Below, in pieces: positions 12,386 to 20,459 of a DNA stretch of 32,000 bases (position 1 is its first letter; each line of letters opens with the position of its first letter). The position numbers and the translations under genes are program-made. Where the stretch lies: contig OY970071.1 of NCBI GenBank assembly GCA_963705375.1, forward strand, positions 1,110,001 to 1,142,000. The letters run 5' to 3'. This DNA comes from Candidatus Saccharimonadota bacterium (lineage in GTDB: Archaea > Micrarchaeota > Micrarchaeia > Micrarchaeales > Micrarchaeaceae). The notes below the pieces were generated by a model that did not search any database, was not told where the DNA came from, and was given only the letters and a program-made list of their open reading frames with translations.

Positions 12386-12458
12386 GCCCTGATAGCTCAG
12401 CTGGTAGAGCGACTGACTTGTAATCAGTAGGTCGGGGGTTCAAATCCCTCTCAGGGCT
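12386..12458 (+). tRNA. tRNA-Thr (anticodon UGU), 73 nt, no encoded CCA, no intron
   Basis: Cloverleaf read by eye. Acceptor GCCCTGA/TCAGGGC; D arm GCTC-AGCTGGTA-GAGC; anticodon arm ACTGA-CTTGTAA-TCAGT (TGT at positions 34-36); variable loop AGGTC; T arm GGGGG-TTCAAAT-CCCTC; discriminator T. Confidence 0.93.
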
Positions 12459-12500
12459 TCTCGCCGTGACACGATGAAGAAGTAGGGTTCAAATCCTCTG
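12446..12500 (+). repeat. Copy 0 of the composite att-like unit (tRNA 3' end, 29-nt spacer, second T-loop-like box)
   Basis: The unit is CCCTCTCAGGGCT followed by TCTCGCCGTGACACGATGAAGAAGTAGGGTTCAAATCCTCTG. It serves as the reference for the downstream copies at 13153, 14570, 18067, 19261 and 20447. Confidence 0.7.
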
Positions 12501-12582
12501 CAATATTGTGCTGTTTATGCCCCAACTAATCAAGTACCAAGGCTTTAATATCTGTGCTGTATGCATTATATCGGCGATTACG

Positions 12583-12786
12583 ATGCAGGAACAGATAATG
12601 GAAAAACGAGTAGTGCGCGACCTAAACGACATAAACGCTAAGTTAGATACTCTTACAATGCTCTACAAGAACCTGATAGATGCACTTGTTAAGACAGGTA
12701 AGATACTCCCTGATGAGAAGAAGGCTCTGAGATCAAATGAAACGCTGATGTCTGAAAAGGCTCTTTTTGATACACTCAAGGCGTAA
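12583..12786 (+). CDS. Putative antitoxin (upstream partner of the RelE/ParE-like toxin)
   Basis: Small helical ORF ending 2 nt before the toxin start. The family is not recognised. Start is uncertain (ATG 12583 or 12598; the track start at 12508 is GTG and lies in the tRNA flank). Confidence 0.5.
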   Translation: MQEQIMEKRVVRDLNDINAKLDTLTMLYKNLIDALVKTGKILPDEKKALRSNETLMSEKALFDTLKA

Positions 12787-12788
12787 GG

Positions 12789-13052
12789 ATGACGTTCGAA
12801 GTCCTTACCAAGAGTTCGGCGTTGAAGTTCATCGAGTCATTAGATGGCAAGCAGAAAGTCAAACTTAGAGAGGCCATAGAAACCCTAAAAGAGGAACCTG
12901 TGCCTGTGGGCACCTATGACATCATAAAACTGAGCGGATACGAAAACCAGTATAGAATCAGGCTTGGAAAGATAAGAATAGTGTATGAAGTCCTATGGAA
13001 TGAGAAAAGGATAATAGTGCATTTTGCTGGCTGGAGAGGACGTGCGTATTAA
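12789..13052 (+). CDS. RelE/ParE-family type II toxin
   Basis: 87 aa with the family-typical C-terminal pattern YRIRLGKIRIVYEVLWNEKRIIVHFAGWRGRAY. It has tight two-gene architecture with the upstream ORF. Confidence 0.8.
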   Translation: MTFEVLTKSSALKFIESLDGKQKVKLREAIETLKEEPVPVGTYDIIKLSGYENQYRIRLGKIRIVYEVLWNEKRIIVHFAGWRGRAY

Positions 13053-13152
13053 CAGAATACCTGAACTGAGCCAACTCGGGGCTTATTACCTGCAGTGAGA
13101 GGCTATCCCAGTGTACGCTTTAAGAAGGGCTTTGGTCGCTTACGTCTTGACG

Positions 13153-13205
13153 TCTTAGGGCCATCCTCGACGTGTCACGACGAAGGATTAGGGTTCAAAT
13201 CCCTC
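13153..13205 (+). repeat. Degenerate copy 1 of the composite att-like unit
   Basis: TCTTAGGGCCATCCTCGACGTGTCACGACGAAGGATTAGGGTTCAAATCCCTC aligns by eye with 12448-12499. The 28-nt 3' part has 4 mismatches. The 5' part has 3 mismatches and 2 single-nt indels. Confidence 0.6.
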
Positions 13206-13275
13206 AAATTGCTCATTTTACAAAATAACAAATCTCAGTATATAAACTGCCAGAAAACCGGGCATATAAATATCT
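13197..13275 (+). repeat. Copy A of a duplicated promoter-bearing segment (partner at 18099-18206)
   Basis: CAAATCCCTCAAATTGCTCATT...ACAAATCTCAGTATATAAACTGCCAGAAAACCGGGCATATAAATATCT. The partner differs by a few substitutions and a ~28-nt insertion. Confidence 0.7.
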
Positions 13276-13300
13276 GGATAAATAGAACGAGTGTGGTAAG

Positions 13301-18066: not shown

Positions 18067-18110
18067 AAATCCCTCTTAGTGCTTAGCGTTCAGAGGTACA
18101 AATCCCTAAA
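18067..18110 (+). repeat. Degenerate copy of the composite att-like unit (internally deleted)
   Basis: AAATCCCTCTTAGTGCTT matches tRNA positions 12442-12459 at 16 of 18. After a deletion, AGAGGTACAAATCCCT matches the second T-loop-like box. Confidence 0.55.
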
Positions 18111-18206
18111 TTGCTCATTGTCTTGTTAGGTCTAATAAATCACAACGTTTGCAAAACAACAAATCTCAGCATATAAACTGCCAGAAAACTGAGCATATAA
18201 ATATCT
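18099..18206 (+). repeat. Copy B of the duplicated promoter-bearing segment (partner at 13197-13275)
   Basis: CAAATCCCTAAATTGCTCATT...ACAAATCTCAGCATATAAACTGCCAGAAAACTGAGCATATAAATATCT. Confidence 0.7.
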
Positions 18207-18325
18207 CCTAAACCACAAAGACTGCTGCGATTATATGACTAAAACAAAGGGCAGTACGCACTCATTTGCTGCAGATACAGAAAATAAAAAAGCACAATAT
18301 GCCGAATTATTTTTTAATGCCTTAC

Positions 18326-18915
18326 GGGCCTGTGAAATCCCTTGCGTTTACGCATGAGGATGAAACAGGCACAGAATATTATCCCTATTTCTCGATTTGT
18401 CTCCAACGCGGCCGTTAGGCCGCGGAGACCTGAGAACATGGATAGTGTAAACTATGAAAATAAGAACCTTGTGCACAACGCGCACTCCGTGGGTGCGAAC
18501 GAATATCATCTGCAATGGGTAACAAAATACAGATATGCGACCCTTGAAAAAGAGTCGCACTGGAAGGATTGCGATGCGGCAATCCGTTCTGCGGCAGAAA
18601 AATATAAAATCAAAATCGTAGAATTGGGCGTAATGGAAGACCATGTTCACGTAGTTGCGGAAATTCCTCCCGAGATGTCTGTTTCTCGTGCGATAGGACT
18701 TCTGAAAGGTTCAAGTTCCTATGAACTCTTCAGAAAACACCCGAATTTTAGGAAGACATATTGGAACGGCCATTTCTGGGGCAGGGGTTATTTTTACAGA
18801 ACAGTAAGTGAGGTGACCGAAGAAACCATCAGAAATTACGTGCGCAGAGACAACAATATGCGTCAGAAGCGACTATGTGCTTGAAGTAAATCCCACACCT
18901 TTAGGTGTGGGTAGT
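18326..18915 (+). mobile_element. IS200/IS605-family element, TnpA only (no tnpB); ends approximate
   Basis: The element carries a Y1 HUH transposase gene. An imperfect hairpin at 18328-18370 lies just 3' of a TTAC at 18322-18325. A perfect hairpin CGCGGCC-gtta-GGCCGCG lies at 18407-18424. The right-end hairpin CCCACACC-ttt-AGGTGTGGG lies at 18892-18911. No inverted terminal repeats, as expected for this family. Confidence 0.8.
18438..18884 (+). CDS. tnpA: IS200/IS605-family Y1 (HUH) transposase TnpA
   Basis: HLQWVTKYRY, the HUH motif in EDHVHVVAEIPP, LLKGSSSYELF and GHFWGRGYFYRTV. Start set to the ATG at 18438; the track start at 18342 is TTG and would read through the left-end hairpins. 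Confidence 0.9.
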   Translation: MDSVNYENKNLVHNAHSVGANEYHLQWVTKYRYATLEKESHWKDCDAAIRSAAEKYKIKIVELGVMEDHVHVVAEIPPEMSVSRAIGLLKGSSSYELFRKHPNFRKTYWNGHFWGRGYFYRTVSEVTEETIRNYVRRDNNMRQKRLCA

Positions 18916-19260
18916 TTAATAATTTTAAAGACGCTGCCCATTGGTTTGAGCTAGAGGCACAACACAGGGTATCCTACAGTGACTATATGGGTGCCGGCAA
19001 GGCGTACGCAAATGAGGCCCGATGTCTTAAGAAGATCGGACGTATTGATGAGGCCATAGTTGCGCTCGACAATGCACATGCGAAATTCATTGCGGCATGG
19101 GATGGTGCTAGTGCTAAAGAAGTAGAATCTGAGAGGACTAGTGCCATAAAGGCGCTCAAGAGATCAAACTTGGTGTGATGCAGCTAAGTTCTTTTAAAGA
19201 TGGGCTCTTTCCTATCTCTTAAGGATGGCATAAAGGGCTAAACGTTACACGCAGCGTTAT

Positions 19261-19315
19261 TCTCTTTCAGGGCTGCCTCGAAGTGACATAAAGAGGAATT
19301 AAGGTTCAATGTCCT
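19261..19315 (+). repeat. Degenerate copy of the composite att-like unit
   Basis: TCTCTTTCAGGGCTGCCTCGAAGTGACATAAAGAGGAATTAAGGTTCAATGTCCT aligns by eye with 12446-12498 at roughly 70% identity. It includes TCAGGGCT, GTGACA and GGTTCAA. Confidence 0.5.
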
Positions 19316-19416
19316 AGAAGAGATTCATAACTTATGTCTTAAGTTTCATTGACTTGATATTTACTGTTAAATGCCATTCTTATTTAGTATGACGCTGAAC
19401 GTGCGAGTGGGAGAAA

Positions 19417-20319
19417 TCATGGCTCTTTTAGTCTATCAAAAAGCATCTCAGTTTCTTTAGCACTCATGTGCTTTACTGTATCAAGAATTTCTTCAGGGCT
19501 GGAAGAAAGAACATCCAATGTTTTCTTCATATCATAATTACTCGCAGCGAATACAAGCAAGGCTACTGCGCGGCCTAAACGCGAACCTATCGCTATGCTG
19601 GCGACCTCTCCCAGATCGCCTTTCTCGATGTTTAATTGGATATCCGATACTATATTTACAGATAATGTAGGATGCTCATTTCTGAGTGCTTCAACAATTC
19701 GGTGTATCTTTTTTTGTGTTGTACCACTCCTCTCTTCATTCATAGACCAAACATGACTAAAGACGGCCTCAAAAAAGTATGCTCCGGGTTCAGGGAGTTG
19801 GCTTTTTATCAGTTCTGAAGGCATATACACAAGGTCTCCCTTATCATCTAAACGGAAAGGTACACTTGTACATTTAGCTAAAAACCCTATTTTACCTTGC
19901 CAAAAATGAAAGACTTCGTGGGGCACGATCGTTGCTATGCTATATGCTTTGTCAACCTCTATGTCCTTATCTCCGTTCCTGTAGCACCCGCCCATATCTA
20001 GTTCTCTACAGTTGGCTACAAACCTAATTCCTGGACCTTCTGATAGACGCAATCTATCTCCCATCAAAGTGTTTATACACTCTACAGCCAGTTCCACATA
20101 TTTTTTACCTTCTTTTTGCACACGCCTTTCTTTGGCTACAGAATCTTCATTAATAATATCCTGCAGCGAAGCCATCTTTACCCCTTTCTGCGCAGCGTAA
20201 GCTTTCGCTTCCTCAAAGGTTGTCAGTGGACCCTCTTCGAGTTCCGTTGTCTTTTTATGGCTAGACGGTGTTTTTGTGTTGTTTGATTCCGTTCCCTCAG
20301 GCTTTGTCTTTCCAGTCAT
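19417..20319 (-). CDS. Hypothetical protein with HExxH zincin motif (putative metallopeptidase)
   Basis: 300 aa. The ~25-aa N-terminus is Thr/Lys/Ser/Glu-rich. There is a single HEVFH motif in the context IATIVPHEVFHFWQGK. No closer family assignment is possible by eye. Confidence 0.55.
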   Translation of the reverse strand: MTGKTKPEGTESNNTKTPSSHKKTTELEEGPLTTFEEAKAYAAQKGVKMASLQDIINEDSVAKERRVQKEGKKYVELAVECINTLMGDRLRLSEGPGIRFVANCRELDMGGCYRNGDKDIEVDKAYSIATIVPHEVFHFWQGKIGFLAKCTSVPFRLDDKGDLVYMPSELIKSQLPEPGAYFFEAVFSHVWSMNEERSGTTQKKIHRIVEALRNEHPTLSVNIVSDIQLNIEKGDLGEVASIAIGSRLGRAVALLVFAASNYDMKKTLDVLSSSPEEILDTVKHMSAKETEMLFDRLKEP

Positions 20320-20446
20320 TTTATTACATTATATTTGCAGTTAATTTCCTATTTATTACTTTCAGTCGAAATGGAAATAGAGTGAGTAAAAAAGCAAAGA
20401 ATATCGGACGTGATCCAACTCGTGGCTTTTTACTGTCAGTAAGAGA

Positions 20447-20459
20447 CCCTCTCAGGGCT
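20447..20459 (+). repeat. Exact 13-nt direct copy of the tRNA-Thr 3' end (att-like, distal)
   Basis: CCCTCTCAGGGCT is identical to 12446-12458 and 14570-14582, in the same orientation, in the gap between the HExxH gene and the AlkZ-like gene. Confidence 0.8.

Follow-up and report, generated by a model that had tools for sequence, protein, structure and literature searches.

We analyzed a 32,000-nt window of contig OY970071.1 (positions 1,110,001 to 1,142,000; "the window" always means this whole stretch) from a tiny, symbiotic archaeon of the Micrarchaeota, and in it an island of small gene cassettes that begins at the 3' end of a tRNA-Thr(UGU) gene. The tRNA gene (12386-12458, + strand) was called by both ARAGORN and Rfam, and the island is flanked by the pyruvate kinase gene pyk on the left and by the gene of an AlkZ-like DNA glycosylase on the right. 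The last 13 nt of the tRNA, CCCTCTCAGGGCT, start at 12446 and recur exactly and in the same orientation at 14570 and 20447. These three copies had been reported in a first-pass annotation made from the letters alone, and recomputation returned all of them. Copies with two mismatches were found at 18071 and 19262, again on the + strand, and the resulting five co-oriented matches compare with 0.59 expected; none of 100 shuffles reached five. Two more decayed cores, with three mismatches each, occur at 13071 and 16131. At three mismatches the count is not significant (7 matches vs 6.95 expected); all seven matches sit inside the island on the + strand, and the one at 16131 coincides exactly with a switch of homology between two different foreign loci. 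No core copy was found downstream of the terminal one at 20447-20459, which marks the right end of the island. The longer degenerate copies that had been described as extending into the tRNA flank, near 13153-13205, 18067-18110 and 19261-19315, were recovered as matches of 70-89%: the tRNA 3' flank at 12460-12496 resembles 13166-13202 (86%) and 19277-19313 (70%), and 12442-12459 is 89% identical to 18067-18084. The island is marginally richer in AT than its flanks, a difference in composition that is not diagnostic.

The cores divide the region as the first-pass annotation had proposed, but into six or seven segments and not into five. Their gene content agreed with the earlier description and comprises a ParE toxin-antitoxin (TA) pair, orphan open reading frames (ORFs), an AbiE pair, membrane proteins, a TPR-like ORF split by an IS200-type insertion and an HExxH protein (Table 1). 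The cassettes measure 0.7-1.9 kb. In the AbiE cassette the antitoxin gene AbiEi adjoins the nucleotidyltransferase gene AbiEii, the arrangement of an AbiE (type IV TA / abortive infection) system; AbiEii was matched by Pfam with E = 2.5e-23 and by PADLOC with E = 3e-25, and AbiEi by PADLOC with E = 1.5e-24. Searches of Pfam, PHROGs, NCBIfam and PADLOC gave no match for ORF184, ORF153, the two membrane proteins or the HExxH protein, and among 5.8 billion proteins the HExxH protein matched only itself. The N- and C-terminal parts of the split TPR-like ORF were read from the six-frame translation. The insertion that splits it encodes a Y1 transposase only and has hairpin-forming ends near 18399-18430 and 18888-18918. 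A 33-nt tandem duplication (17502-17567, 88% identical) was noted within the gene of the 157-aa membrane protein.

Table 1. Features of the tRNA-Thr island and its flanks, in positions of the window
Feature	Positions	Strand	Evidence
pyk (pyruvate kinase), left chromosomal flank	10970..12328	+	Pfam PK and PK_C, E = 2e-77
tRNA-Thr(UGU), attB-bearing gene; core copy A = 12446-12458	12386..12458	+	ARAGORN; Rfam (75.4 bits)
Cassette 1: left module A 12459-12510, antitoxin 12583-12786, ParE toxin 12789-13052, right module 13054-13115	12459..13152	+	ParE_toxin E = 7e-6
Decayed core B and left module B (palindrome-containing stretch, 14-nt T-arm copy 13191-13204, AAATTGCTCATT, promoter-like part 13217-13275)	13153..13281	+	similarity to L001
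Cassette 2 cargo: ORF184 (13301-13855) and ORF153 (13980-14441), orphans	13301..14441	+	
Right module C (ATGACCTTTCCGCACTA) and exact core C (14570-14582)	14549..14582	+	14549-14590 vs L001 13143-13184: 83%
Cassette 3a: AbiEii (14593-15384) and AbiEi (15391-15993), ended by decayed core 16131-16143	14583..16143	-	Pfam, PADLOC
Cassette 3b: 302-aa membrane protein (16219-17127) and 157-aa zinc-ribbon membrane protein (17239-17712)	16144..18070	-	
Core D (2 mismatches) and shortened left module with promoter-like part	18071..18206	+	
Cassette 4 cargo: TPR-like ORF split by IS200 (transposase ORF 18342-18884)	18236..19178	+	Y1_Tnp E = 1e-35; weak TPR matches 18987-19178
Core E (2 mismatches) and diverged left module	19262..19320	+	19277-19313 vs 12460-12496: 70%
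Cassette 5 cargo: 300-aa HExxH protein, orphan	19417..20319	-	
Right module F (decayed core, then hairpin) and exact terminal core F (20447-20459)	20398..20459	+	74% to 13054-13111; 82% to L046 1854-1913
AlkZ-like DNA glycosylase gene, right flank	20531..21640	-	Pfam AlkZ-like, E = 2e-60

We aligned all junctions on the core and found that cassette ends are shared around unrelated cargo, with left modules of ~65-130 nt and right modules of 40-60 nt. The left-end module lies 3' of the core at 12446 (A), 13153 (B) and 19262 (E), is shortened at 18071 (D), and occurs after the tRNA in the comparison contig L001 as well as in L045-L048 (comparison contigs are given L numbers throughout). Copy B is ~88% identical to L001 11477-11540 over 65 nt. 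The module includes a short palindrome, 14 nt that exactly repeat the tRNA T-arm, and AAATTGCTCATT, and is followed by a promoter-like extension (13217-13275 vs 18148-18206, 92% identical) that stops ~25 nt before the first cargo ATG. Right module C, with ATGACCTTTCCGCACTA, precedes the core at window 14549 and at L001 13143 (83% over 42 nt), where it forms the right end of the L001 AbiE cassette. The hairpin-bearing right module F precedes the core at window 20398 and at L046 1854, and a decayed version closes cassette 1 at 13054-13115, where both the hairpin and a decayed core can be made out. Window cassette 2 and the L001 cassette have only the 65-nt left end and the 42-nt right end in common: the two orphan ORFs of the former are unrelated to the AbiE pair of the latter, which is itself only 27% identical to the window's AbiE pair. 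A third cargo, a 211-aa ORF, stands behind the left module in L046 in place of ORF184 and ORF153. Cassettes 3a and 3b carry no head module.

The end modules showed no significant RNA structure. Rfam found no RNA family in the island besides tRNA-Thr, the alifold consensus of the left module gave a weak T-arm-like hairpin (-1.5 kcal/mol) with no significant fold or covariation, and the z-scores of single-sequence folds (-1.2 to -2.4 for the left module and right modules C and F) were not significant. A structured RNA, a tRNA-like element or a split-tRNA half in the left module was rejected on the empty Rfam result and the weak folds. A tRNA-Glu called by ARAGORN in L001 (11448-11537) overlaps tRNA-Thr and the head module and was taken as spurious; a sub-threshold Rfam match to Plastid-ycf2, antisense of the window's tRNA (12386-12459, - strand), is likely spurious too. 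The 14-nt T-arm copy, GGGTTCAAATCCCT, is exact at window 13191-13204, L001 11514-11527, L045 2489-2502 and L046 1080-1093; in the window it lies ~36 nt after decayed core B and, with the next bases, forms a stretch that matches the final 23 nt of the tRNA at 83%. In L027 and L030 a hairpin, GGGCTTTTTACCGTCAGTAAAAAGCCC, directly follows the identical tRNA-Thr and resembles the hairpin of module F (20421-20446) and the stretch 13078-13105. This likeness suggests that module F may derive from a tRNA end together with its native trailer.

The first-pass annotation had recognized no recombinase anywhere in the window, and more sensitive searches came to the same result. A tblastn search of the window with the Xer-like integrase described below gave a best E of 2.1, and an unfiltered profile of ~45 tyrosine recombinases, run against all six-frame stop-to-stop fragments of the 32 kb, gave a best E of 1.1. 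Six-frame Pfam analysis of the island (taken for the recombinase searches as 12300-20600, 8.3 kb) returned only Y1_Tnp, ParE, AbiEii, AbiEi and weak sub-threshold matches to unrelated families. The island is without a recombinase save the IS200 transposase, the window is without any tyrosine recombinase, and in none of the six or seven segments did tblastn, the profile or six-frame Pfam detect an integrase remnant.

A candidate enzyme was found at the same tRNA in related Micrarchaeota. The tRNA-Thr of the window is identical in L001, L027/L030, L032 and L046, and pyk adjoins it in the window, L001, L032 and L046. In L032, whose pyk protein is 68% identical to that of the window, the tRNA is followed by the gene of a PF00589 tyrosine recombinase with its start codon ~60 nt past the tRNA end. 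Homologues with 59-71% identity occupy the same position directly after a tRNA in L033, L034 and L035/L036. The target is tRNA-Thr(CGU) in L033, with type I restriction-modification, DndB and AAA_15 genes after the integrase; an intron-containing tRNA in L034, with Vsr, PLD and helicase genes; and tRNA-Thr(UGU) in L035/L036, with a bounded 6.8-kb element. In L035 the exact CCCTCTCAGGGCT is present at 9981-9993, within the tRNA, and again 6.8 kb away at 16772-16784. The integrase gene adjoins the tRNA, and the element is self-contained: it has a right-end core of its own, and no cassettes follow it. Since the exact 13-mer bounds this element, we take it to be the att core of this integrase family. 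The integrase gene is not split by integration, as alignment showed its N-terminus to be complete beside attL; a split integrase of the SSV (Sulfolobus spindle-shaped virus) type was rejected on this ground and because no fragments lie by any repeat. The extra length of the integrase in relatives is a C-terminal zinc ribbon and coiled coil, and the short C-terminus in L032 looks like a frameshift.

The nearest solved structure to the integrase is XerA (4A8E, E = 9e-12). Against the NCBIfam model recomb_XerA_Arch it scored 101.7 bits, below the equivalog cut-off of 220, and by sequence the enzyme is Xer-like and not a XerA orthologue. There was also a weak sub-threshold NCBIfam match to the integron integrase, and the closest deposited viral relatives were integrases of archaeal pleomorphic viruses with ~29% identity. 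The cargo of the window island was absent from the integrase-bearing loci, save one distant AbiEii match. The sequence that follows the core in the integrase-bearing elements differs from that of the cassettes and runs into the int promoter. Two apparent intron-containing tRNA genes missed by ARAGORN were noted alongside, at L034:9987-10096 and L031:340-436; the former is an integration target of this integrase family, and the latter ends in CCCTCTCAGGGCT.

Exact-sequence cluster look-ups led us to contigs with at least 90% identical copies of the window's ParE and AbiEii, and the pyk/tRNA-Thr interval could be compared in relatives, as the first-pass annotation had suggested. Cassette content differed among them, with presence/absence variation at repeat boundaries. 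L001 has a single, different cassette at tRNA-Thr. L032 and L046 come from one sample and agree at 100% over 343 nt (the pyk 3' end and the tRNA) before they split at the last tRNA base, past which L032 has the integrase element and L046 an array with the ParE cassette; the two are alleles. L045 and L046 are 98.5% identical starting at the first core base. Leftward of that core the two differ: the tRNA is there in L046, and L045 carries a segment that matches the L001 AbiE cassette at 80%. In L045 the ParE cassette begins exactly at a non-tRNA core copy. The L001-type AbiE cassette, itself integrase-less, stands alone at the tRNA in L001 and at the array head in L045; neither the window nor L046-L048 has it. 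One integrase-less AbiE cassette is therefore found in differing array contexts. That the left part of L045 is a fold-back artefact like that of L032 was rejected, given the lack of inverted repeats and its 80% match to L001. In a third pair, L041 and L043, complete identity over 10,865 nt gives way to divergence within the core beside the window-type AbiE pair. All three polymorphisms (L032/L046, L045/L046 and L041/L043) break exactly at the core.

The blocks of the window could in turn be traced to other arrays. Window 12386-13281 is 96.9% identical to L046 275-1170. The AbiEii and AbiEi genes (14599-16068) are 87.8% identical to L041 9317-10786, and the same pair is present in L041-L044, where two co-oriented cores enclose it at the distal end of an array at tRNA-Thr(CGU). 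This array has the order tRNA, a ~19-kb island with a truncated integrase, core, decarboxylase and permease genes, core, AbiE, core and an aminoacyl-tRNA synthetase gene. The window-type AbiE cassette is thus found at arrays of two tRNA-Thr isoacceptor genes. A membrane-protein gene (16153-17210) is 87% identical to L045 4840-5897, where it is the last gene before the terminal core (L045 5929-5941) of another array. That L045 and L041 are contiguous, with the AbiE cassette moved by inversion, was rejected, as the two loci have no sequence in common. The switch in the window from the AbiE block to the membrane-gene block coincides with the decayed core at 16131-16143, and the AbiE and membrane-protein segment, drawn in the first-pass annotation as one, is therefore two cassettes. 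A Micrarchaeota metagenome-assembled genome has a pyk protein with 73% identity to that of the window, and against the L046 lineage pyk is 73% identical overall and 68% in the 3' end. Set against the 73% of pyk, the 96.9% of the ParE block and the 87-88% of the AbiE and membrane blocks indicate that the cassettes are younger than the split of their hosts. Synteny at pyk is lost beyond about 68% identity (L031). Other contigs of the source organism (L026, L049) are 100% identical to the window, end in repeats and show no variation. A metagenome scan for the tRNA 3' end returned four short contigs only, and scans of viral contigs with three motifs gave no match.

These observations uphold the earlier view of the island as the footprint of repeated site-specific integration at the tRNA 3' end. 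Two options had been offered for its origin, a decayed stack of integrated elements and small cassettes mobilized in trans. The latter is favored, fitting the absence of integrase remnants, the shared ends and the moved cassettes better than a purely decayed stack does, but decay is also real. With a probability of about 0.6, we read the island as a tandem accretion of small non-autonomous cassettes at an attB in the tRNA-Thr(UGU) 3' end, recombined in trans. Each cassette would be bounded by copies of the 13-bp core CCCTCTCAGGGCT, most having a conserved left module with a promoter-like stretch at the start and one of a few right modules at the end. The cores would be recombined by the Xer-like tyrosine integrases of Micrarchaeota, whose genes lie on separate, self-sufficient elements with the same tRNA base as target. 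An element of this kind would enter at the head of the array and recombine any pair of intact cores. Neighboring cassettes would thereby be inserted, deleted or carried along, by accretion and cis- or trans-mobilization as in the bacterial cis-mobilizable elements (CIMEs), and departure of the element would leave an integrase-less stack such as that in the window. The action of the integrase on cassette cores is proposed, and the cassettes would presumably pass through circular intermediates. Transfer of cassettes between lineages was recent; their route between cells is one that we infer.

Several points weigh against this reading. Part of the array is probably frozen, given the degenerate cores at 13153, 16131, 18071 and 19262 and the IS200 insertion. 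The stretch of 97% identity to L046 stops at 13281, within the left module and not at a core, and homologous recombination between modules must therefore contribute too. The post-core sequence of the integrase elements differs from that of the cassettes, which bears on whether the Xer-like integrase would recognize the cassette sites. None of the 50 integrase homologues found lies on the 1,209,602-bp source contig, in a search of limited sensitivity, and within the limits of that search the source genome is probably without this integrase family. No excised circle, composite excision product or empty junction of any window cassette was seen in the compared contigs, most of which were assembled from long metagenome reads and contain frameshift errors. 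In L032, a fold-back assembly, only the first ~3 kb is informative, the region beyond the integrase element not being visible. Its positions 1-6314 are palindromic, with arms 94-100% complementary about position 3070, and only one half is real sequence.

The island could instead be a fossil stack in which the segments are remnants of complete integrase elements, nothing moves, and differences arise by ordinary deletion and homologous recombination between repeats. The degenerate cores and the IS200 insertion are decay of the kind that this would leave, the N-terminally truncated integrase of the L037-L040 array tells that integrases do decay in this group, the lack of an integrase homologue on the source contig agrees with it, and the definition of CIMEs in the review presumes origin by decay (PMC5704250). 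We nevertheless consider a fossil stack unlikely. Not one of the six or seven segments keeps an integrase fragment, and in the integrase-bearing relatives the gene abuts the core with a flank unlike the cassette openings. End modules are 83-97% conserved around unrelated cargo, the same cassettes occur at other array positions and at another tRNA gene with breakpoints exact to the core, and the ParE block is far younger than the divergence of the hosts.

It seems to us quite improbable that the tRNA-Thr end is the primary capture site of an integron-like platform, in which purpose-built cassettes are shuffled by a host-associated integrase to vary TA and defense content. The cassettes are small, a conserved promoter-like head precedes different cargos, the cargo is rich in TA and Abi genes here, in L039 and in L045, and the integrase gene of L032 occupies the head of the array position, all of which would suit such a platform. 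On the other hand, the L035 integrase is part of an element that is self-contained and closed by a right-end core of its own. The sites repeat the tRNA end directly and are not attC-like hairpins, the left module being without a significant fold or Rfam match; cassettes 3a and 3b lack the head module; and a resident integrase was found neither in the window nor, as far as it is searchable, in the source genome. That the repeats are not recombination sites at all, but local duplications, chance matches, tRNA-derived miniature repeats or RNA motifs, is hardly credible, for although the left module has a T-arm-like hairpin and a spurious overlapping ARAGORN tRNA was called in L001, the exact 13-mer bounds the L035 integrase element and marks three independent polymorphism breakpoints, Rfam finds nothing tRNA-like in the island except the tRNA-Thr gene, fold and covariation are not significant, and chance is ruled out by the shuffles.

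The trans-mobilized accretion that we favor is not a new principle, and the first-pass suggestion of an undescribed arrangement does not hold, as the CIME concept (PMC5704250), the ssrA islands of Dehalococcoides (PMC3146451) and archaeal arrays at one tRNA site (PMC6563490) precede it. CIMEs are integrase-less, att-flanked elements accreted in tandem, a model drawn from streptococcal integrative and conjugative elements and integrative and mobilizable elements, with examples in other bacteria too (PMC5704250). The window island resembles them in that integrase-less segments keep attL and attR copies of the tRNA 3' end, stacked beside the target gene (PMC5704250), and that an integrase-bearing element of the same specificity integrates alongside. 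Each segment lies between cores, some of them degenerate, and six-frame searches found no integration or transfer genes of its own. It differs from CIMEs in its host, a DPANN archaeon, in the absence of a conjugation module, and in its far smaller cassettes (0.7-1.9 kb) with short conserved head and tail modules around unrelated cargo, for which descent from a larger element by decay is not apparent. In the tandem ssrA islands a 20-bp repeat derived from the ssrA end forms the boundaries, and the 15 of them that have no integration module were put forward as CIMEs (PMC3146451). In both systems several islands follow one tRNA-like gene in tandem, its 3' end recurring at their boundaries as a short direct repeat (20 bp in Dehalococcoides, 13 bp in the window) with a conserved motif beside it; many of the islands have no integration module, and their content varies between strains. 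The recombinase there is the serine enzyme DsiB (PMC3146451), whereas the candidate here is a Xer-like tyrosine recombinase, and the rdhA islands are multi-gene, several kb long and in many cases equipped with an integration module, while the window array has none.

A survey of integrated mobile genetic elements in Thaumarchaeota notes arrays formed where tyrosine-recombinase elements use one tRNA site repeatedly (PMC6563490). The window resembles them in its archaeal host, in having the tRNA 3' end as target and direct repeats as att sites, and in the repeated use of one site. In the passages on them, those arrays consist of integrase-using elements, and no integrase-less cassettes below 2 kb with shared ends are described (PMC6563490). 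Integrons likewise have arrays of very small, promoter-dependent cassettes, mostly of one or two genes and often TA, shuffled by a tyrosine recombinase; the window differs in that its sites are direct tRNA-end copies and not folded attC sites, and in that it has no resident intI/attI/Pc platform, the integrase being on a separate mobile element. SSV-type elements also integrate in an archaeal tRNA gene and leave a direct repeat, but here the int gene is unsplit, and none of the segments has an int(N) or int(C) fragment beside it. As in tRNA islands generally, an intact tRNA stands at one boundary and co-oriented repeats of its 3' end lie internally and distally. Variation in content is bounded by the att repeat (L001, L032/L046, L045/L046 and L041/L043). 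An integrase within the island is lacking in the window and present at the same tRNA in L032 and L035.

Little is understood of how DPANN archaea, whose genomes are very small, gain genes and exchange them. Our analysis confirmed the observation and partly supported the interpretation, and points to a concrete route of gene exchange, in which stacked short integrase-less cassettes are passed between lineages ~27% apart in the neighboring core gene and an identifiable integrase family works at the same tRNA base. It extends the bacterial accretion/CIME model to archaea and supplies defined recombination sites (the 13-bp core with head and tail modules) and a candidate enzyme. A search of a literature library found no description of such arrays in Micrarchaeota or other DPANN archaea. 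The unusual features are the host group, the very small cassettes, the standardized head and tail modules around unrelated cargo, and the presence of one cassette at the arrays of two tRNA-Thr isoacceptor genes. Annotators should be aware that integrase-based island finders will miss such arrays. Possible, but doubtful, is the further idea that Micrarchaeota, and perhaps other small-genome DPANN archaea, keep tRNA-Thr-anchored integron-like platforms without a resident integrase, at which visiting Xer-like elements capture and reorder standard mini-cassettes and exchange them between lineages and isoacceptor genes. In such a mini-cassette, a head that bears a promoter and a T-arm mimic may be followed by one or two cargo genes, then by a tail module and the 13-bp core. 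If this were true, genome-reduced symbionts would gain a cheap, swappable pool of TA, defense and surface genes.

Some further features were seen at related loci and elsewhere in the window. L037-L040 represent one locus in four samples, with a ~19-kb array at tRNA-Thr(CGU) bounded by CCCTTCCGGGGCT and CTCTTCCGGGGCT. This array contains the N-terminally truncated integrase, RHH/PIN, HEPN/NT and HicA TA pairs and an IS66, and L039 has extra modules compared with the other three samples. A 485-aa HTH_AsnC-type protein is encoded in the window at 3441-4898 (- strand), and homologues 32-37% identical to it occur within the L037-L040 islands in two to three copies per island, each after a repeated ~790-nt module. 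Another HTH_AsnC-type copy was found in L030 near tRNA-Thr, and the protein may belong to an element-associated family.

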